A DNA stretch of 64,000 nucleotides. It comes from a virus. Both the position numbers and the translations under genes were made by a program. This document shows positions 1 to 64,000 of the stretch, piece after piece. How positions within the stretch are numbered: the stretch's first letter is position 1; each line of letters begins with the position of its first letter. Under the pieces are notes generated by a model that searched no databases, was not told the origin of the DNA, and worked only from the letters and a program-made list of their open reading frames with translations. The DNA lies in IMG/VR virus record IMGVR_UViG_3300003797_000002; one strand, given 5' to 3'.

Positions 1-894
1 GGTGCATGTGCAGGCATGTTCTGTCGTAGCACAAACGATCTATCAGCACTAGCCGTTCATTATGGTGTTGAAGTCAAGTATTACTATCTGTTCAACGAAT
101 CACTTATCACCCGCGCTCGTAACTACTGCGTAGATGAGTTCCTTCGGTCAGACTGCACACACTTGATGTTCATCGACTCAGACATTGGCTTTAACTCCAA
201 TGACGTAATGACGATGCTTGCTCTGATGAGTGAAGAATCAGAATACGACATCCTTTGTGGTCCATATCCTAAGAAGTGCATCTCATGGGAAAAGATCAAG
301 ATGGCTGTTGATAAGGGCTTTGCCGATCAGGATGCCAGTGTTCTTGAAAAGTTTGTTGGTGACTATGTTTTCAATCCTGCTAATGGCAAGAACGAAATCA
401 AGATCGCTGAACCAGCCGAAGTTCTAGAATCTGGTACTGGCTTTATGATGATCAAGCGTTCGGCTCTCGAAAAGATGACCACCGAATACCCACATCTGAT
501 GTATCGCCCTGACCACGTTCGCACAGCCGCATTTGATGGTTCGCGTGAAATCCCTTGCTTGTTTGATGCACTTATCGACAACAAGCACGCGCATATCAGC
601 AATGAGATTCGTGAGTTCTACAAGAAGAATCCTAAGGCTACTCAGGAACAAGTTGTCGCGTTCCTTGACGATGCAAAGCATTCTGCTTTTGGTTTTGAAT
701 ACTCGAATCGCTATCTATCAGAAGACTATATGTTCTGCCAGTGGGCACGTAAGATTGGTCTAAAGGTATGGCTTGCTCCATGGATTCAGCTACAGCATGT
801 TGGTTCATACGTGTTTGGTGGTTCACTCGCTGATCTAGCAGCCGTTGGCGCTGCTGCTACTGCTGATCCATCAAAGTTGGGCAAAAAGGGATAA
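1..894 (+). CDS. glycosyltransferase (GT2-like), probably 5'-truncated by window edge
   Basis: Frame open from base 1; DxD-type motif THLMFIDSDIGF; stop 892-894. Confidence 0.55.
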   Translation, partial: GACAGMFCRSTNDLSALAVHYGVEVKYYYLFNESLITRARNYCVDEFLRSDCTHLMFIDSDIGFNSNDVMTMLALMSEESEYDILCGPYPKKCISWEKIKMAVDKGFADQDASVLEKFVGDYVFNPANGKNEIKIAEPAEVLESGTGFMMIKRSALEKMTTEYPHLMYRPDHVRTAAFDGSREIPCLFDALIDNKHAHISNEIREFYKKNPKATQEQVVAFLDDAKHSAFGFEYSNRYLSEDYMFCQWARKIGLKVWLAPWIQLQHVGSYVFGGSLADLAAVGAAATADPSKLGKKG

Positions 895-5577: not shown

Positions 5578-6330
5578 ATGTCAATGCACAAGTTTGGTCA
5601 CTTTCTAAGAGAAGATATCTCTCTTACGTTTCAGTATCATGATGAGTTGAATCCTCTTATCTGGGATGGTGATGAACTAAAGCAGAACATCAAAGAACGT
5701 CTTCTATTGATTGGTAGAATGTTTGCTGTGTTTGCCAATATTCCAGAAGATGCTATCAAAGACATCGTGTTCACTGGTGGCAATGCAAACTATAACTATA
5801 CACCACATTCCGATCTAGACGTTCATCTACTGATCAACATTTCAAAGATTCCAGGTATCAACCGCGTGTATCTTGATGATTATCTTTATGATAAGAAACT
5901 TTTATGGGGATACAAACATCCATCGCTGACTGTCATGGGATATCCTGTTGAACTATATGCGCAGAGTTATAGAGAGAAGTTGGTGTCACCTAAAGCAAAT
6001 CGTGGTGTCTACTCTCTAATGCAAGACAAGTGGCTGTTCAAGCCAAGAAAAGAGAAGCCAGGTGACTTTCACAATGACACAGGCTTTAAGAATAGACTTG
6101 AACATCTAATCAAACAGATCGAAGATGTTCTCACAAAGACTGGTGACCATAGCGAGGACATTAAGCGCCTCAAGATCAAGATCCGCAATATGCGTTCTTC
6201 TGGTATTCACAAATCTGGTGAACTTTCTGTTGAGAACCTCCTCTTTAAGGAGTTACGTAATATGGGCTACATTGATAAGCTAAACGAATATCTGATAAAA
6301 ATGCAAGATCGACATTTATCTGTTTACTAA
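5578..6330 (+). CDS. putative Pol-beta-superfamily nucleotidyltransferase
   Basis: FTGGNANYNYTPHSDLDVHLL resembles the GS-x(n)-DxD NTase signature; otherwise unrecognised. Confidence 0.35.
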   Translation: MSMHKFGHFLREDISLTFQYHDELNPLIWDGDELKQNIKERLLLIGRMFAVFANIPEDAIKDIVFTGGNANYNYTPHSDLDVHLLINISKIPGINRVYLDDYLYDKKLLWGYKHPSLTVMGYPVELYAQSYREKLVSPKANRGVYSLMQDKWLFKPRKEKPGDFHNDTGFKNRLEHLIKQIEDVLTKTGDHSEDIKRLKIKIRNMRSSGIHKSGELSVENLLFKELRNMGYIDKLNEYLIKMQDRHLSVY

Positions 6331-11839: not shown

Positions 11840-12021
11840 TATACAGAATCAGAACGTTCGATGGTAAGTACCACATTTTTGAGACAACCACTGGGTTTAC
11901 CATCTATTCCTCAGCCGAGGAAGACAAGGTGAAATCTATCTGTCGTTTCTTAAACTCAGGAGGTGGTTTCAATGGAGCCACCCCTGCATTTTTTTGCCAC
12001 AAAGTTGACATTACCGATTGA
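11836..12021 (+). CDS. hypothetical protein
   Basis: TTG start overlapping the gp41 stop; TGA stop lies inside the next TTGACA. Confidence 0.4.
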   Translation: MIYRIRTFDGKYHIFETTTGFTIYSSAEEDKVKSICRFLNSGGGFNGATPAFFCHKVDITD

Positions 12022-12080
12022 CATTTTTTCAGAATCAGCTACATTGAGAATGTAGTTAGTGAGAAAGGTGATTCGTTATG
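12018..12080 (+). promoter_or_regulatory. early sigma70-type promoter + conserved leader cassette (copy 1)
   Basis: TTGACA 12018-23, 16 nt, TACATT 12040-45, leader GAGAATGTAGTTAGTGAGAAAGGTGATTCGTTATG; 63 bp identical to 12276-12338. Confidence 0.7.
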
Positions 12081-12269
12081 ATTAAGATTTTTGCTATTGC
12101 ATTCGCTCTGGTTGCCCTAGAACTCTTTGGGTTCAAGGAACTCGTTAGTTTTATGCATCCCATTGCGTTGATTAAGTTTTTCATCGCTATTCCGTTCGTT
12201 GCCATTGCTGCGATTACCGCTTGGTATCCCTTTGCGGTAGGCATCTGTGGCGGTCCTGAACGCTTCTGA
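12078..12269 (+). CDS. small membrane protein
   Basis: Two hydrophobic helices; cassette-driven. Confidence 0.55.
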   Translation: MIKIFAIAFALVALELFGFKELVSFMHPIALIKFFIAIPFVAIAAITAWYPFAVGICGGPERF

Positions 12270-12275
12270 TATCTC

Positions 12276-12338
12276 TTGACATTTTTTCAGAATCAGCTAC
12301 ATTGAGAATGTAGTTAGTGAGAAAGGTGATTCGTTATG
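12276..12338 (+). promoter_or_regulatory. early promoter + leader cassette (copy 2)
   Basis: Perfect 63-bp repeat of 12018-12080. Confidence 0.7.
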
Positions 12339-13108: not shown

Positions 13109-13185
13109 TCCCTAGGGGCCCTATCGGTAGGGGCACAAGACTGTTAATCTTGTCGTTATAGGTTCGAATCCTATCTAGGGAGCCA
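13109..13185 (+). tRNA. tRNA-Asn (GTT)
   Basis: Acceptor TCCCTAG/CTAGGGA, D stem GCCC/GGGC, anticodon stem CAAGA/TCTTG with loop CTGTTAA, T arm ATAGG-TTCGAAT-CCTAT, encoded CCA. Confidence 0.85.
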
Positions 13186-14798: not shown

Positions 14799-15425
14799 AT
14801 GAACAACGTAACGAACTTTAAAAACTTCATTGTCGAGTCACAAAACACACTCCATGCCTTTGACATGGATGAAACTTTGTTTACTCACGATCCAGGTTCA
14901 CTCGCTATTCATGTAAACGATGAACATGGCAAGCGAGTGAAGTCTTTAAGTAATCAACAGTTCAATACGCATAAGTTAGATCCAGGTCATTCATATGACT
15001 TCTCTGACTTTAGATCATCTAGCAAGTTGCATCAAACGGGTAAACCTATTCGTAAGATGCTTGCTAAGATGAAAGCCATTCATAATAATGGCGGTAAGGT
15101 TGAGATACTAACTGCTCGGGCAGACTTTGACGATCAGCCAAAGTTTGCCGAGTTTATGAAGAAGTATGGAGTAGATATAAATAAAGTGCATGTTCGCAGG
15201 GCTGGTAATAAGCCTGGTGATCCTGCCGTAAGAAAACGTGATATTGTACACAATCTCATTAATCAGAATGGATATAAAAACGTCCATCTCTATGATGATT
15301 CTAAAGACAATCTAGCACAGTTTCTTTCATTGAAGCAACATCATCCTGGTGTTAACTTCAATGCTCATCACGTAAGTCATAACGATGACACTGGTGAGAC
15401 TACGGTACGCACAACGAAAGTTTAA
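14799..15425 (+). CDS. HAD-superfamily phosphatase (DxDxT)
   Basis: AFDMDETLF motif I, ILTAR motif II, YDDSKDN motif IV-like; same chemistry as the T4 Pnkp phosphatase domain and 5'-nucleotidases. Confidence 0.6.
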   Translation: MNNVTNFKNFIVESQNTLHAFDMDETLFTHDPGSLAIHVNDEHGKRVKSLSNQQFNTHKLDPGHSYDFSDFRSSSKLHQTGKPIRKMLAKMKAIHNNGGKVEILTARADFDDQPKFAEFMKKYGVDINKVHVRRAGNKPGDPAVRKRDIVHNLINQNGYKNVHLYDDSKDNLAQFLSLKQHHPGVNFNAHHVSHNDDTGETTVRTTKV

Positions 15426-15426
15426 T

Positions 15427-15500
15427 GCCGATATAGTATAGTGGTAATACAGTGGATTTGTAACCCTCTGACAGGAGTTCGATTCTTCTTATCGGCACCA
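15427..15500 (+). tRNA. tRNA, probably Thr (TGT)
   Basis: Acceptor GCCGATA/TATCGGC, D arm GTAT-AGTGGTA-ATAC, T arm AGGAG-TTCGATT-CTTCT, CCA encoded. Anticodon loop TTTGTAA, but its stem has two mismatches. Confidence 0.65.
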
Positions 15501-15610: not shown

Positions 15611-15687
15611 CTACCATTAGGAAAGTCTGGTAATCCGCCTGGTTTGGGGCCAGGAGATCGGGAGTTCAAATCTCTCATGGTAGACCA
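15611..15687 (+). tRNA. tRNA-Pro (TGG)
   Basis: Acceptor CTACCAT/ATGGTAG, anticodon stem CCTGG/CCAGG with loop TTTGGGG, T arm GGGAG-TTCAAAT-CTCTC, discriminator A + CCA. Confidence 0.85.
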
Positions 15688-15705: not shown

Positions 15706-15936
15706 ATGAAAATGAAAATATTCAAAGCTTTCAAAGAATCGACAACAGAGACACCAGAGAACATTCAGATTGAAGTTCTAGGTGTTGATGATAGCTGGCG
15801 TAGAGTTGAAGGCGGTGTTCCTAATCGTGCGCAGTCTATTGCTCGTGCATTAGAGTATACCAAAAAGAGATATCCTAAGAACCGAGTTCGTGCTGTTGGA
15901 CAGAAAACGGGCAGGTTCTACGATCTTTTGCCTTGA
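15706..15936 (+). CDS. hypothetical protein
   Basis: ORF only; 3' end overlapped convergently by the endonuclease gene. Confidence 0.5.
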   Translation: MKMKIFKAFKESTTETPENIQIEVLGVDDSWRRVEGGVPNRAQSIARALEYTKKRYPKNRVRAVGQKTGRFYDLLP

Positions 15937-16511
15937 TGTTTATTTTTTAATGTTTCGCTTATTTTTTTCTTAGTCTCTTCACTTGGAACTTTACCAAGTT
16001 GAGCAAGTCTCATTTTTTCTTTTGTTTCAGTTGATCTTTTTTTACCTACATTTTTCTTGTGTAGACTAGTTAAACGATCTATTTCTAGTTGAGTTTTGTT
16101 TCTGTTTTTGTGTGAATCTGAAAGTTTTTTTATAGTATCAGATGATCGTTTCTTCCCCTTGTTCGCAAGTCCCATTTTGATTCTCGATTCTTCAGTTAAC
16201 CCCGATCTTGGTCCTGTGTGATATTTACATCCCACATTTCCAGGTTTAGCGTCTTCCTGTACAAGATTTGCCCAAGATTTAGATTCGACAATATCATTTT
16301 CTTGTGAGAACGAAATAGCATATGCCGTAGCGTCTTCTTGGTTATAGAAGGTGTGTACTTCTAAAGTTATAGGTGTTATGTTATGCGATTTTATGTGTCT
16401 GATCCAATACTGACCAGATCCTTTATATCTGAAAGGATTTTTTGTTTTAGTGTAACCAAAATATTTCATATCACAATGACCACATTGCTTCACGTATAGA
16501 TAAATAACCAT
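15918..16511 (-). mobile_element. free-standing GIY-YIG-type homing endonuclease with NUMOD3-like repeats
   Basis: IYLYVKQC..KYFGYT..YKGSG N-terminal module. C-terminal repeats SEESRIKMGLANKGK / STETKEKMRLAQLGK / SEETKKKISETLK. Sits inside the tRNA cluster as segB does in T4. Confidence 0.75.
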
Positions 16512-16581
16512 AGCTGATGCTCCTGTTTAGCGTTAGAGTCTGTGGATATTAGTAGTATCGTGACAGACAATATTACTTATA
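16512..16581 (-). promoter_or_regulatory. conserved homing-endonuclease leader
   Basis: Minus-strand TATAAGTA at 16574-81, hairpin GTCTGT(16538-43)/ACAGAC(16563-68), TCTAACGCT, GGAGCATCAGCTATG. Confidence 0.55.
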
Positions 16582-16594
16582 TAAAACACCCTTT

Positions 16595-16668
16595 GCCTCA
16601 TTAGCATAGAATCAATGCATCTGGCTTCCACCCAGAGGAAAACGGGGAGGTACCGTTATGAGGCTCCA
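16595..16668 (+). tRNA. non-canonical tRNA-Gly(TCC)-like cloverleaf
   Basis: All four stems are perfect: acceptor GCCTCAT/ATGAGGC, D GCAT/ATGC, anticodon TCTGG/CCAGA (loop CTTCCAC), T AACGG/CCGTT. U8, A14, U33, A37 and T+CCA are present. D loop AGAATCA lacks GG, and T loop is GGAGGTA instead of TTCRANY. Confidence 0.6.
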
Positions 16669-16687
16669 ACATCATGAAAGGTAAATA

Positions 16688-16957
16688 ATGGCAGTTAGTA
16701 CACGTAAGACTAAGGTCTCAAAAGGTATTCACTCAAACGTTTCAAAAGCAACTTCAAAGCTTGTGAAGCGTGATCGTTGCACACTAACACATGAACTTGA
16801 TCTTGTTAAAGCATGGCGTGCTGGTCGTAATCCTTGGATTACCATTGTCAATCCTAATAAGAACCAGACAAACATGCTGAATATCCGTGTTCGTGCCAAT
16901 GAATATTGGGGCAACTACAAGCGTAGTTCGAACGTAACACAGGCTCAAGAAGACTAA
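16688..16957 (+). CDS. hypothetical basic protein
   Basis: ORF with AAAGG SD. Confidence 0.5.
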   Translation: MAVSTRKTKVSKGIHSNVSKATSKLVKRDRCTLTHELDLVKAWRAGRNPWITIVNPNKNQTNMLNIRVRANEYWGNYKRSSNVTQAQED

Positions 16958-16994: not shown

Positions 16995-17669
16995 ATGATG
17001 CAGCGGTTGCTATCTATCCCTAGGATGTTAGCTTCCGCTGCATTTTCTTTTCTAGCAAAGCGGAAGCTGCCTCCATCGTTACCTGCAAATCAAGTCTGGC
17101 CTTACGGTCAGGCTATTGTCGTGCCTGGTACCACAGTGCTTTGTAACTCGTTCTATCTCGTTCTTTATGATGAAAAGAATATGAGAACGATTCTATCTGC
17201 TGAAGTGACACAGCCACCACATGACCACGTGGAAAGAGACGACGCATTCTGCTCTGATCCTCGCCTGAAACGGTCACCAACACCAGATGACTATACAGAC
17301 AGTGGATATGATCGCGGGCATCTAACACCCGCTGCTGACGCTGGAAACGAAGTCCAGATGCGCGACACATTTCTAATGACCAACATGACACCACAACTAC
17401 CAGATGTAAACAGGATTATCTGGAAAGAACTGGAAGCGATGGTGAGAGGGATGGAGACGCAATACGTGGTGACTGGTGCAATCTATACTGATCCATCTAC
17501 TTGTATTGGAGAACGTAGGATTCCCGTTCCATCGGCGTATTACAAAGTTGTCTATCTCAAAGATCGCTCTATCAAAGTTTATATGGCTGACAACGTTGAA
17601 GGATCTGCTCTGATAGAAAAATCTTTATCAGAGTTAGAATCTTTGGTGGGATACACATTTCCCTCTTGA
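16995..17669 (+). CDS. DNA/RNA non-specific endonuclease (Serratia NucA family), probably exported
   Basis: GYDRGHLTPAADA..NMTPQ active-site pattern; hydrophobic N-terminus. Confidence 0.8.
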   Translation: MMQRLLSIPRMLASAAFSFLAKRKLPPSLPANQVWPYGQAIVVPGTTVLCNSFYLVLYDEKNMRTILSAEVTQPPHDHVERDDAFCSDPRLKRSPTPDDYTDSGYDRGHLTPAADAGNEVQMRDTFLMTNMTPQLPDVNRIIWKELEAMVRGMETQYVVTGAIYTDPSTCIGERRIPVPSAYYKVVYLKDRSIKVYMADNVEGSALIEKSLSELESLVGYTFPS

Positions 17670-17732
17670 CATTATTCCCGAGTCGTGTATTATCAGTAAT
17701 GTAGTCAGTGAGATATAAGGTGATTCGTTATG
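17666..17732 (+). promoter_or_regulatory. early promoter + leader cassette
   Basis: TTGACA 17666-71 (contains the nuclease TGA stop), 16 nt, TATTAT 17688-93, AATGTAGTCAGTGAGA..AAGGTGATTCGTTATG. Confidence 0.7.
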
Positions 17733-17909
17733 TTTAGTTTATCTGCTTCTATCTCTGTGATTCGTAGCTACGGTATCAATATCGACGGTGTGAGCGATAT
17801 TCTCAATGTTTTGGATGATCTAGGTCAAGTTCGTAAAGATGGTTACATCGACCAAAAGAATCTTGATCGCCAGATTCAAAAATATCGCAAAGCACAAAAG
17901 GCTGCTTGA
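17730..17909 (+). CDS. small hypothetical protein (59 aa, below ORF-track cutoff)
   Basis: MFSLSASISVIRSYGINIDGV..; cassette-driven; TGA stop inside the next TTGACA. Confidence 0.6.
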   Translation: MFSLSASISVIRSYGINIDGVSDILNVLDDLGQVRKDGYIDQKNLDRQIQKYRKAQKAA

Positions 17910-17971
17910 CATATAACTCGAATCTGTTATGGTAAGAATGTAGTCAGTGAGTTTGTGGAGCAATCAATATG
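17906..17971 (+). promoter_or_regulatory. early promoter + leader cassette
   Basis: TTGACA 17906-11, 16 nt with CGAATC, TATGGT 17928-33, AGAATGTAGTCAGTGAG, GGAG, ATG 17969. Confidence 0.7.
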
Positions 17972-27697: not shown

Positions 27698-27844
27698 ATG
27701 ACTGTTACTGAAATCGTTAATGAACTTCTACTAGAAATGGAACTTCTAGAAATGCAAGAATACACGCTAGCCGCTGAAACCATTCGGAAGTTTCTTCGCA
27801 TCGCCACTCCGATTCAGGTCAAGGCTCTCGAAGATTTCGTTTGA
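27698..27844 (+). CDS. small hypothetical protein (48 aa)
   Basis: ATG 27698 after AGGAAA; TGA stop inside the next TTGACA. Confidence 0.45.
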   Translation: MTVTEIVNELLLEMELLEMQEYTLAAETIRKFLRIATPIQVKALEDFV

Positions 27845-27903
27845 CATTATTCACGAATCGTGTATGGTGAGAATGTAGCAAAGAGAAAAGGTGATTCGTT
27901 ATG
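27841..27903 (+). promoter_or_regulatory. early promoter + leader cassette (near-consensus)
   Basis: TTGACA 27841-46, TTATTCACGAATCGTG, TATGGT 27863-68, GAGAATGTAGCAAAGAGAAAAGGTGATTCGTTATG. Confidence 0.75.
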
Positions 27904-32500: not shown

Positions 32501-33751
32501 AACTATGAGTTTCCTCACATCACCAACATCGCTGATGTGCTGCCTGCTATTGAAGGTCGTTACGAGTTCGTTGTGGCTGAGAAGGAAGGCTACACGGTCA
32601 TCAACTACAACGTGATGATGTCCGATACGTTTCCTGATGTGCCAGTTGATATGAAGTGGCAGGAGCCTCTCAATCGTATTGCTTTTGGTGAGTACGATCC
32701 CACCGCAGCAATCCGTCGTGAATGTCGTGGTATCATCTTTGATACTGAAACTGGTTATATCATTCGTCGCCCGTTCCATAAGTTCTTCAATGTGAACGAG
32801 CGTGAGGAGACGCAGGATCATGTCATTGATCTGTCGCGCCCTCATGCTATCCTTGAGAAGCTGGATGGTTCCATGATCGCTCCGTTCATTGTGAATGGTC
32901 AAATGATCTGGGGCACGAAGATGGGTGCTACCGACGTGGCAAAGCCTGTTGAGGAGTTCGTCAAGAACAAACCTCAGTATGAGAAGTTTGCTACTTCCTG
33001 CATTGCCAACGGTGTAACTCCTATCTTTGAATGGTGTTCGCGTAAGCAGCGCATTGTTCTGGACTACAAGGAAGATCAACTGATCCTCACCGCTCTTCGC
33101 GATATGCATACTGGCGAATATATCAAACTGTTCGGTGATGGTCGTATCAACCGATTGCATGTTGAAGATTGGGATATCCCTGTCGTCCGTGCATTTGAGT
33201 TCACTAACTATGGTGAACAGAATGATATGAAGGCTTTCCTTGAATACGTCCACGATCTGGAAGACCTTGAAGGGTTCGTGGTTCGTTTTGATGATGGTCA
33301 TATGTTGAAGTTGAAGTGCCATTGGTATCTCCAGATTCACAAGGCGAAGGAAGCTATCCTGCAAGATCGCAACATCGTTGAACTGATTCTGGAAGAAAAG
33401 CTGGATGACATCAAGGCTCATCTGCCTGCCGAAGATCGTGATCGGCTGACTCAGTTTGAGAGCAATATTCATTTTGATATTGCCCGTCGCGTAAGGCTGA
33501 TTGGTATGAAGCTGGAATATCTCCGTGAGCGTGGTATTGATCGTAAAACGTTTGCAATCGATCCGAAGCACAGTGTTGGTGTTGATGCTTTCATTCGTCC
33601 TATTATTTTCAAGAACTTTGATAACGACATTATCAGTGGTCTGAAGATTGGCGAAGACGTTCGCAAAACGATCCGTAATAACCTTGGTCGCACGGCAAAG
33701 TATGAAGCGATCCGTGATGCTTGGTTTCCGGGAGTGAAGTACAATGACTGA
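32498..33751 (+). CDS. rnlA: RNA ligase 1-like (T4 RnlA family)
   Basis: ECRGIIFD, HKFFNVNE, motif I EKLDGSM, FEWCSRKQRIVLDY, EGFVVRFDDGHMLKLKCHWY, all collinear with T4 Rnl1. Confidence 0.9.
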   Translation: MNYEFPHITNIADVLPAIEGRYEFVVAEKEGYTVINYNVMMSDTFPDVPVDMKWQEPLNRIAFGEYDPTAAIRRECRGIIFDTETGYIIRRPFHKFFNVNEREETQDHVIDLSRPHAILEKLDGSMIAPFIVNGQMIWGTKMGATDVAKPVEEFVKNKPQYEKFATSCIANGVTPIFEWCSRKQRIVLDYKEDQLILTALRDMHTGEYIKLFGDGRINRLHVEDWDIPVVRAFEFTNYGEQNDMKAFLEYVHDLEDLEGFVVRFDDGHMLKLKCHWYLQIHKAKEAILQDRNIVELILEEKLDDIKAHLPAEDRDRLTQFESNIHFDIARRVRLIGMKLEYLRERGIDRKTFAIDPKHSVGVDAFIRPIIFKNFDNDIISGLKIGEDVRKTIRNNLGRTAKYEAIRDAWFPGVKYND

Positions 33752-61929: not shown

Positions 61930-62130
61930 ATGATCACGAAGCTTTCAGGTGGTGCATTCGAACTTCAAACAGGTCGCCCATGGACTTGGGGTATCTCGCC
62001 ATTTCGTGAAGGTGAAGCACTGAAACTGAAACGAGAAGAGTCTGGTCGCTGGTTCTTTGAAATCAACGAGGTGCAATATTCTGCCAAGCAGATCGCGCCA
62101 CACCTCAAAGATATCCAAATGCACTCTTGA
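61930..62130 (+). CDS. hypothetical protein
   Basis: AAGGAG SD; TGA stop inside the next TTGACA. Confidence 0.55.
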   Translation: MITKLSGGAFELQTGRPWTWGISPFREGEALKLKREESGRWFFEINEVQYSAKQIAPHLKDIQMHS

Positions 62131-62190
62131 CATTTATCCAGAATCGTCTATGGTAAGAATGTAGTCATTGAGAAAGGTTGATTCGCTATG
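62127..62190 (+). promoter_or_regulatory. early promoter + leader cassette
   Basis: TTGACA 62127-32, 16 nt, TATGGT 62149-54, AAGAATGTAGTCATTGAGAAAGGTTGATTCGCTATG. Confidence 0.75.
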
Positions 62191-62610
62191 GGACGTTCAG
62201 TTGATTATGCCAGTGGCGCCGGCGCTGTGGTCTATGTTGATGTTTCGTACATTCAGGACTCCTGGGAATGGGATGACTTTGTAGATGATGTGCAGAGCAT
62301 CGTCAAGGATGCCTACAAATCGTTTGACAACGAAGACAAGTGGATTGGGCGTGAACTTCGTGCCATTCTGGAAAACAGGTTCGCTCAAGTTGTAGTTTCG
62401 GAATACTGTGGGCTGGCCAGCATTTCTCTGGTCGCCAAAGAGTACGATTGCTACTACAGCGATGAGATTTCTTTGCAGAATCTTGCCCATGCTTGGGTCA
62501 ATCGGATTGCACCCAACTTTGAAAAGGTGTTGAACAAGGCTTTCAACTGCTATGCCAAGATCGGCAGTTTCAGCAACGGCGAAGGTGTTTACGAAAAAAT
62601 CGCTGCTTGA
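62188..62610 (+). CDS. hypothetical protein
   Basis: Cassette-driven ORF; the 156-aa antisense ORF is judged a shadow. Confidence 0.55.
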   Translation: MGRSVDYASGAGAVVYVDVSYIQDSWEWDDFVDDVQSIVKDAYKSFDNEDKWIGRELRAILENRFAQVVVSEYCGLASISLVAKEYDCYYSDEISLQNLAHAWVNRIAPNFEKVLNKAFNCYAKIGSFSNGEGVYEKIAA

Positions 62611-62668
62611 CATTATTCCTGATTCTGTTATGATGAAAAAGTAGTCAGTGAGAGAGATTCGAATCATG
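62607..62668 (+). promoter_or_regulatory. early promoter + leader cassette
   Basis: TTGACA 62607-12, 16 nt, TATGAT 62629-34, GAAAAAGTAGTCAGTGAGAGAGATTCGAATCATG. Confidence 0.7.
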
Positions 62669-63686: not shown

Positions 63687-63750
63687 TTGACATTTATCCC
63701 GAATCGTGTATGGTAAGAATATAGACAGAGAGAAGGGTTGATTCGTTATG
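63687..63750 (+). promoter_or_regulatory. early promoter + leader cassette
   Basis: TTGACA 63687-92, TTTATCCCGAATCGTG, TATGGT 63709-14, AAGAATATAGACAGAGAGAAGGGTTGATTCGTTATG. Confidence 0.75.
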
Positions 63751-64000
63751 GCTTACATGTCTCAGGAAAAGAAAGCTGCTATCGCTCCCAAGGTCAAAGC
63801 GATCCTCAAGAAGTACAATATGAAGGGTAGTCTGTCGGTTCGCCATCACAGCACTCTGATTCTGACCTTGAAAGAAGGTCCTCTGAAGTTCGCTCAGAAC
63901 GAAAACGGTTATAGTCAGATGCACTTTTATCATCTGGAAAGCAACTATCAGGGCAAGGAACTTCAGTTCTTGAAGGAACTTCGTGTTGCTATGAACGACG
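63748..64000 (+). CDS. hypothetical protein, 3'-truncated by window edge
   Basis: MAYMSQEKKAAIAPKVKAILKKYNMKGSLSVRHHSTLILTLKEG..; frame open to the window end. Confidence 0.55.
   Translation, partial: MAYMSQEKKAAIAPKVKAILKKYNMKGSLSVRHHSTLILTLKEGPLKFAQNENGYSQMHFYHLESNYQGKELQFLKELRVAMND

Follow-up and report, generated by a model that had tools for sequence, protein, structure and literature searches.

A transfer RNA gene for glycine, tRNA-Gly(UCC), in which both loops of the tRNA elbow are recoded was found at positions 16595-16668, plus strand, of the IMG/VR virus record IMGVR_UViG_3300003797_000002, a stretch of 64,000 nucleotides referred to below as the window. The gene belongs to a conserved and apparently undescribed family of phage tRNA-Gly in which the D loop and the T loop have been rewritten together, and it most likely specifies a working glycine tRNA, with expression, processing, charging and decoding all inferred. 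The tRNA is of a known kind; what is new is the elbow variant, and its occurrence as a family and not as a single oddity. Few nucleotides in biology are as conserved as G18, G19, T54, pseudouridine 55 (Psi55), C56 and A58, and in bacteria the elbow built from them is recognized by modification enzymes as well as by the ribosome, RNase P and RNase Z. No published description of phage tRNAs with such an elbow was found.

The element was re-read in the sequence as the 74-nucleotide (nt) cloverleaf proposed in a preliminary description of this DNA, with stems of 7, 4, 5 and 5 base pairs (bp) in which 21 of 21 pairs are Watson-Crick. The acceptor stem (GCCUCAU, 16595-16601, with AUGAGGC, 16658-16664, on the plus strand like all parts of the element) is followed by U8 A9 (UA, 16602-16603), the 4-bp D stem (GCAU, 16604-16607; AUGC, 16615-16618), a single A, the 5-bp anticodon stem (UCUGG, 16620-16624; CCAGA, 16632-16636), the 4-nt variable loop GGAA (16637-16640), the 5-bp T stem (AACGG, 16641-16645; CCGUU, 16653-16657), U73 (16665) and an encoded CCA end (16666-16668). 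The anticodon UCC (16627-16629) lies in the loop CUUCCAC, or C32 U33 U34 C35 C36 A37 C38 (16625-16631), and the conserved positions U8, A14, A21, U33, A37, discriminator U73 and CCA are all held. The D loop AGAAUCA (16608-16614), numbered by homology with the tRNA-Gly of phage T4, reads A14 G15 A16 A18 U19 C20 A21. The loss of its GG, noted earlier, stands, but the earlier placement of U and C at positions 18 and 19 has to be corrected to A18 U19, followed by C20, where G18 G19 are canonical. The T loop GGAGGUA (16646-16652; G54 G55 A56 G57 G58 U59 A60) is non-canonical as had been claimed: T54, Psi55, C56 and A58 are all substituted, purine 57 is the only canonical position of T-Psi-C-R-A retained, and five of the seven positions deviate from TTCRANT.

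The minimum free energy structure of the element was exactly the annotated cloverleaf (-23.2 kcal/mol, z = -1.98). When the filters were relaxed, it was matched over model positions 1-71 of 71 by the Rfam tRNA model RF00005; the score of 42.2 bits exceeds the gathering score of 29 (E = 1.4e-5 over both strands of the 64-kb window), so that the cloverleaf match is far beyond chance. The bacterial identity set for glycyl-tRNA synthetase (GlyRS), comprising U73, G1-C72, C2-G71, C35, C36 and (G10-Y25):G45 (PMC9976931), is complete in the element. This set, the Rfam score and the covarying family described below bear out the earlier assignment to a tRNA-Gly(UCC)-type gene. It had also been predicted that standard scanners might reject the element or score it low, and this held: ARAGORN called three tRNAs in the window, the element not among them, and a whole-window Rfam scan at the gathering threshold with default filters lost it, because of the default speed filters only.

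Relatives were sought in IMG/VR with patterns anchored in three different ways, namely on the Gly anticodon loop together with an aberrant T loop, on a fixed D arm and anticodon loop with the T arm free, and on a fixed degenerate T loop with the D arm free, and all matches were then cloverleaf-filtered. At least eight distinct family sequences were recovered on at least 10 uncultivated viral contigs: the window type and those of contigs L068, L069, L070, L193, L194, L214 (= L290) and L251. The D loop was ARAAUYA in all eight, including those recovered with the D arm unconstrained, and the T-loop consensus was RGARKUA (GGAGGUA, GGAAGUA or AGAGUUA), including those recovered with the T arm unconstrained. 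Among the matches listed, tRNA-shaped sequences with ARAAUYA always carried a T loop of the RGARKUA type, and conversely, and none of the members found had canonical loops. The coupling of the two changes, a check proposed in the preliminary description, was thus seen in every relative found. Since every scan pattern fixed some letters, the conservation of the loops is partly a matter of ascertainment, and the cross-anchoring shows their co-occurrence and not their full variation. The anticodon loop CUUCCA, required by every family search pattern, was invariant in the family, and it was also present in three further alleles (B, C and E, below) that were recovered through a flanking gene.

Disrupted stems in relatives, which had been named beforehand as evidence against the element, were looked for, and 168 of 168 cloverleaf pair cells were standard across the eight sequences although their acceptor, D, anticodon and T stems differ. 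Fifteen of the 21 pairs were altered on both sides. In shuffle controls none of 500 matched the covariation score or the percentage paired and one of 500 matched the number of pairs changed on both sides, and controls with slid alignments dropped to 33-50% paired. The encoded CCA is missing in three of the eight members, which have CAA or CTT there. Exceptions to the glycine identity set were G2-C71 in L251, G10-Y25 in seven of eight (A10-U25 in L251) and G45 in five of eight. ARAGORN was silent on the members in the window, L001, L002, L068-L070, L193, L214 and L251, and called only that of L194, as Gly-tcc.

Further searches did not extend the family. A widened D-loop pattern gave only three more matches, all of them non-tRNA chance ones; megablast and blastn of the locus and three family sequences against 50,697 GenBank phage records found no member; and a pattern scan of bacterial and archaeal genomes gave chance matches only, with no cloverleaf among the matches listed. 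A match in Prevotella phage Lak-A2 was rejected as a member, being an apparently intron-containing, otherwise canonical tRNA-Gly(UCC). This apparent intron (L305, MK250019.1, about 33234-33360) lies in an unannotated megaphage record, and ARAGORN made no call there.

The tRNA-Gly(UCC) of T4 (T4t006) shares with the element the length of 74 nt, a 7-nt D loop (AAUGGUA in T4), a 4-nt variable loop, C32-U33-UCC-A37, U73, the encoded CCA and a place in a cluster with Thr(UGU) and Pro(UGG), and its 3' acceptor strand, TATCCGC, is that of the L069-type members. It differs in having canonical G18G19 and the T loop UUCGAUU, as against A18U19 and GGAGGUA. Because the layout is the same, the D loop of the family was numbered A14 R15 A16 A18 U19 Y20 A21. 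On this numbering an outer pair U19-A56 is possible in eight of eight members, and so is Y20.G55. The G18.Psi55 contact is lost in the family, and U54.A58 has become G54.G58 or, in L194 and L214, A54-U58; for the Levitt pair 15-48 a consistent pattern was absent across members. The 19-56 pair thus occurs in three Watson-Crick versions among homologous phage tRNA-Gly, as U19-A56 in the family, A19-U56 in allele B and G19-C56 in T4. The partners of the elbow (the ribosomal L1 stalk and L5, RNase P) contact it mostly by stacking against the flat face that the 19-56 pair presents (PMC4810234), and a U-A pair there would keep such a face. As there is no covariation of these contacts within the family, they are put forward as candidates compatible with the data.

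The company in which the members are found is that of phage tRNA clusters, with at least 16 other tRNAs around the member of L070, at least 12 in L251, at least 10 in L194 and six in L068. The Gly(UCC) position of these clusters is filled by the family member, with no second Gly(UCC) there; in L251 a canonical Gly(GCC) begins 6 nt beyond the member. Of about 35 other tRNAs in the clusters almost all have a TTCRANY T loop and GG in the D loop, and for this reason the elbow anomaly is taken to be specific to Gly(UCC). Milder deviants of the T loop were noticed at L070 6789-6861 (Ile-gat), L070 6175-6247 (His) and L194 2904-2977, with the loops ATCGTAA and ATCGTGC (a swap to A54...U58) and TTAGATC. 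L068 is a distant relation within the lineage of the window (about 74% nucleotide identity over the nrd genes), and its allele is 89% identical to the element with no endonuclease gene beside it, so this allele type is native to the lineage and is not merely the cargo of an endonuclease.

The locus was compared among close relatives using the 89-amino-acid gene downstream of the element (phrog_23239; 16688-16957, plus strand) as an anchor in IMG/VR, JGI metagenomes and an assembly index. In these relatives the gap from the tRNA end to this gene is always 19 nt. The slot upstream of it is hypervariable in the phage population of the window: with flanks 93-99% identical it holds one of four Gly(UCC) alleles (A, B, C and E) or a deletion. 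Allele A is identical to the window element, and the endonuclease gene upstream is always present with it. Allele B, seen in L003, is 74 nt long with AGAGAUU as its D loop and UUUGAGU as its T loop; it comes without the endonuclease gene and is read by ARAGORN as Gly-tcc; it has 45 of 74 bases in common with allele A, with six pairs changed on both sides and none broken. Allele C has a canonical T loop and a second tRNA after it, and allele E (L030 805-885) is 81 nt long with a long, class-II-like variable arm. Common to all are G1-C72, C2-G71, U73, CCA and the CUUCCA anticodon loop, and the 42.2 bits of allele A are within the range of other slot alleles (49.7 for B, 40.9 for C). The long variable arm of allele E is unusual for tRNA-Gly; ARAGORN calls this allele, which the Rfam scan omitted. 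The second tRNA after allele C (L009 2911-2982 = L028 2411-2482) is read by ARAGORN as Gly-tcc, while a 7-nt loop with U33 gives the anticodon CCA (Trp), and on both readings the anticodon stem contains one mismatch.

The boundaries found by BLAST delimit a variable block of 747 bp (15906-16652), which faces 89 bp in relatives that have no endonuclease gene (L003 2877-2965). The block holds the 3' end of a 76-amino-acid open reading frame (ORF; 15706-15936, plus strand), the last codons of which overlap the 3' end of the endonuclease gene, then the endonuclease gene itself (15918-16511, minus strand), an 83-bp spacer and most of the tRNA gene. Its flanks are 97-99% identical, and such presence or absence with flanking divergence is a signature of co-conversion. 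In the commonest relatives (L010, L029, L310 and L312) a segment of 651 bp (16023-16673) is deleted, taking with it the entire tRNA and about two thirds of the endonuclease gene. Nine contigs encode the exact endonuclease and span the slot, and each of the nine has allele A exactly. Among contigs with the exact anchor protein 23 were read: 17 had the deletion, four the endonuclease with allele A and two allele B. From the nine-of-nine linkage and the prevalence of the deletion type, the endonuclease gene and allele A behave as a dispensable unit. Deletion-type relatives also carry an extra tRNA-Glu(UUC) between Thr and Pro (L010 2487-2564 = L029 1987-2064), which the window does not have.

This linkage raises the possibility that the element is a hitch-hiking relic, a once functional tRNA-Gly with both loops crippled that is neutral and kept only in the co-conversion tract of the endonuclease. 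The invariable linkage in the window population, the frequent loss of the tRNA along with the endonuclease gene, the rejection by ARAGORN and the seldom used cognate codons all fit such a history. Neutral decay would, however, hit the stems, and here five of seven T-loop positions are off TTCRANT while all 21 stem pairs are Watson-Crick. Moreover, both loops recur in eight diverged sequences on unrelated phage contigs with 15 covarying pairs, and the members of L068 and L251 have no endonuclease gene alongside. The relic explanation is therefore largely refuted by the conservation of the family, and we regard it as very improbable.

The same comparison bears on a cis-acting role in the mRNA, either as a tRNA-like processing signal for the 89-amino-acid gene or as a GGAGG leader for a short ORF coupled to that gene. 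The preliminary description had pointed to GGAGG in the T loop as a Shine-Dalgarno sequence 7 nt ahead of an AUG that opens the 8-codon ORF MRLQHHER (16658-16684), and the letters, the spacing and the ORF are all present; the stop of this ORF lies 3 nt ahead of the start of the 89-amino-acid gene, and the tRNA-to-gene gap is constant in close relatives. The Shine-Dalgarno role, on the other hand, is unsupported. GGAGG is present in only four of eight members, the others having GGAAG or AGAGU, and the AUG in the acceptor strand is confined to the acceptor type of the window and L068 and, without a Shine-Dalgarno sequence, to allele B. Both would be buried in stable cloverleaf helices or loops, and in other phages the next genes after the members are other tRNA genes or unrelated ones. 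A 5' processing element for the gene had also been suggested; that the gene depends on it is contradicted by the commonest relatives, which delete the element and retain the gene with its own AAAGG ribosome-binding site. Distant homologues of the 89-amino-acid gene (36-51% identity; 34 loci and phiM12) have no tRNA upstream, which counts against a cis-acting role and is otherwise uninformative for the element. A role only as a Shine-Dalgarno site and mini-ORF or only as a processing signal is thus rejected, in view of its non-conservation and of the deletion variants, and a cis-acting element of any such kind is scarcely credible.

As a working tRNA, the element would be transcribed with the plus-strand tRNA cluster and then trimmed to its encoded CCA end. 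It would be charged by the host GlyRS through U73, G1-C72, C2-G71, C35 and C36, and it would decode GGA and GGG, or possibly all four GGN codons, given C32, which is invariant among family members. Whether all four Gly codons can be read by an unmodified UCC anticodon depends on position 32 (PMC7826273). The L shape would be held by U19-A56 as a substitute outer pair where G19-C56 is canonical, and the other elbow contacts would be replaced by Y20.G55 and G54.G58 (A54-U58 in L194 and L214). A comparable elbow is found in the pyrrolysine tRNA (tRNA-Pyl) of Desulfitobacterium hafniense and Methanosarcina, which is likewise without G18G19 and T54-Psi55-C56 and shares G55, A56 and purine 57, and tRNA-Pyl with such an elbow works with bacterial EF-Tu and ribosomes (PMC1851642). 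It differs in retaining U54-A58 and in its 5-nt D loop, 3-nt variable loop, 6-bp anticodon stem and single base between the acceptor and D stems, whereas the element has the standard cloverleaf geometry. Metazoan mitochondrial tRNAs are similar in that their D/T contacts are replaced or lost and the tRNA still functions. They differ in having co-evolved ribosomes, RNase P and synthetases (PMC4810234), whereas the element would need ordinary bacterial machinery.

Several points weigh against a working tRNA. The loss of U54-A58, Psi55 and G18 exceeds that of tRNA-Pyl. U19-A56 is invariant within the family, so that the pair is compatible with the data and not proven, and the consensus of the family loops was partly set by the search patterns. 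The element is also dispensable, 17 of the 23 contigs read having the deletion, and codon usage gives weak support for a translational role, as GGA and GGG together make up 18% of the Gly codons in the window (for the neighbouring tRNAs the values are 39% for ACA and 48% for CCA). Finally, the staphylococcal tRNA-Gly(UCC) species sharing G55 and U19 are inactive on ribosomes (PMC7826273).

This last case suggests that the element could instead be a non-translational glycine tRNA or a decoy, charged or merely bound, and kept off EF-Tu and the ribosome by its T arm and elbow. Such a molecule could supply glycyl groups to a reaction outside the ribosome, or it could act as a sink or stand-in substrate for a host defence enzyme directed at tRNA. 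The element is the same UCC isoacceptor as NP1-3 of S. aureus, with G55 for Psi55 and U at 19, and NP1-3 associate weakly with EF-Tu and not at all with ribosomes (PMC7826273). According to their published description, NP1-NP3, which serve the pentaglycine of the cell wall, are bacterial-type tRNA-Gly(UCC) with G55 (UGC or UGU in the T loop) and U19, and they show that changes of the elbow and T loop can redirect the use of a Gly(UCC) tRNA (PMC7826273). The little use of GGA and GGG, the coexistence with a canonical Gly(GCC) in L251 and the restriction of the anomaly to Gly among about 35 neighbouring tRNAs would also agree with a role outside translation. NP1-NP3 differ, however, in retaining U54 and pyrimidine 56 and in being chromosomal, in Gram-positive cocci with Fem transferases, whereas in the element 54, 55, 56 and 58 are all changed and the gene is phage-borne. 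Beside no member was a Fem-type transferase or another gene using aminoacyl-tRNA seen. In addition, the members occupy an otherwise vacant Gly(UCC) position in near-complete phage tRNA sets, there is free variation at the T-stem pairs 49-65, 50-64 and 51-63, where no shared pattern that would weaken EF-Tu binding is seen, and the anticodon loop is canonical throughout, a feature that would be needless in a pure donor or decoy. We therefore consider a non-translational role unlikely and prefer a working glycine tRNA.

The endonuclease gene inseparable from allele A in the window population is free-standing, lies antisense to the tRNA cluster and encodes a Seg-like protein of 197 amino acids. 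The protein has an N-terminal region with GIY...YIG and Y-x-GSG, and NUMOD3 repeats (Pfam NUMOD3, E 4.8e-7, 30 bits against a cut-off of 20.4), with no match to the Pfam GIY-YIG model. It matched PHROG 314, 'homing endonuclease', with E 1e-11 and shares about 30% of its residues with annotated Seg-like GIY-YIG endonucleases; a PDB sequence search was uninformative. The gene is missing from relatives 97-99% identical to the window. The preliminary description had drawn a parallel with segB in the tRNA cluster of T4, and this held in so far as a Seg-like gene, with NUMOD3 repeats and probably of the GIY-YIG type, adjoins the element in a T4-like tRNA cluster. Orthology with T4 SegB was tried and rejected (BLASTP E about 0.3, not significant). 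Like SegB, the enzyme is encoded by a free-standing gene, probably of the GIY-YIG type, in such a cluster, present or absent among near-identical phages, with co-inherited flanking tRNA genes, and in the window population the tRNA gene would form a mobile unit with it. Unlike the element, the T4 tRNA genes retain canonical T arms.

Nuclease genes are frequent beside other members as well, directly adjoining the member in four of six fully readable contexts. In L070 a true SegB homologue (668-1294; 56% identity over 96 amino acids, the catalytic domain of T4 SegB, E 2e-35) is encoded about 300 bp from the member. A gene for a helix-turn-helix (HTH)-DUF559 nuclease directly adjoins the member, on its downstream side in L069 and L070 and on its upstream side in L194. 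This conserved gene of about 280 codons (L069 1055-1879, L070 ..232 and L194 1986-2837, all minus strand) specifies a GcrA/sigma-r4-like N-terminal HTH, a Cys-rich middle and a C-terminal DUF559 domain (Vsr/restriction-endonuclease-like). By its domains and position the protein looks like a homing-type nuclease inserting beside the family tRNA gene. The slot region of the window population is itself a hotspot of gain and loss of homing endonuclease genes. Two genes were observed there that the window does not have: a 221-amino-acid NUMOD3 gene overlapping the end of the Endonuclease_NS gene in L310 and L312 (2966-3631, minus strand), and an HNH_2 gene upstream of a 74-amino-acid ORF in L312 (1014-1577, minus strand). 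At the end of the tRNA cluster of L194 a group I intron match (Rfam, 99 bits; 76-298, minus strand) overlaps a tmRNA-like match (272-662, minus strand), the latter scoring 46.6 bits, slightly below the gathering score of 47.

The reason for the recoding of the elbow is unproven. The leading idea, which we advance tentatively, is that the canonical T-arm DNA, which SegB-type enzymes resident in phage tRNA clusters prefer as a target, was erased while a foldable tRNA was kept. The T4 SegB site of 27 bp has GGTTCRANTCC as its essential core, and this core is the DNA of the T arm in tRNA genes (PMC2330249); the motif RAWTSGAAC found by genome-wide SITE-seq in 2026, GTTCSAWTY when read on the other strand, is the reverse complement of the T-arm core, and segB homologues cluster with tRNA genes (PMC13096335). 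The T arm of the family (GG GGAGGTA CC) has lost five of the nine specified positions of the SegB core, and allele B has lost the C of the core and carries the matching G19-to-A change. A tRNA-Gly gene immune to the endonucleases could adjoin their genes and be co-converted with them, which would explain the linkage, the hypervariability of the slot and the patchy spread of the family. Taken further, and with slightly less confidence, a canonical T arm might be a liability in phage tRNA clusters, its erasure with repair through U19-A56 might give an endonuclease-immune gene that spreads with endonucleases, and the hypervariable slot might be the footprint of this arms race. In favour of target erasure are the SegB homologue near the member of L070, the four of six nuclease-adjacent contexts and the inseparability of allele A and the endonuclease in the window population. 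It is opposed by the lack of detectable SegB orthology of the window enzyme, by the persistence of perfect SegB cores in other tRNA genes of the same genomes, including those of Asn in the window and of Ile next to segB in L070, and by the members of L068 and L251 with no adjoining endonuclease gene.

The genome that carries the element is that of a large, distant T4-like phage. Its replication module is of T4 type (family B DNA polymerase, DnaB-like helicase, NrdA), the polymerase is about 50% identical to those of cyanomyoviruses, and no DNA-level match to any GenBank phage was found. Samples in which the phage is present are from fresh water, among them JGI 3300021130, 3300021142 and 3300032677. 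The three tRNAs called by ARAGORN, Asn(GUU) at 13109-13185, Thr(UGU) at 15427-15500 and Pro(UGG) at 15611-15687, are on the plus strand with canonical TTCRANT T loops. Between the tRNA genes lies a gene for a HAD-family protein with a match to the PHROG 'polynucleotide kinase' (14799-15425, plus strand), which recalls T4 Pnk. T4 Pnk has a role in tRNA repair. A non-specific nuclease gene (16995-17669, plus strand) is a further neighbour of the element. A scan for sigma-70 promoters right upstream of the members found none, with no excess over shuffles. Elsewhere in the window a cassette of about 70 nt with the consensus CTTGACATTTTTCCnGAATCnGnTATGGTGAGAATGTAGTCAGTGAGAAAGGnTGATTCGTTATG is reiterated, comprising sigma-70-like -35/-10 boxes, a conserved leader, an AAAGG ribosome-binding site and a start codon. 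Copies were seen on the plus strand at about 12018-12087, 12271-12338, 17664-17736, 17905-17951, 27841-27903, 62125-62190, 62606-62656 and 63719-63751, and also in L068 at 5758-5832. These cassettes are probably early promoter-leader units ahead of many small genes.

The family amounts to a natural experiment on the extent to which ordinary bacterial machinery depends on the elbow sequence. Because such genes escape ARAGORN and the default filters of Rfam, the tRNA repertoires of phages are probably under-counted. The family also offers a testable link between endonucleases that read the DNA of tRNA genes and the evolution of tRNA tertiary structure.

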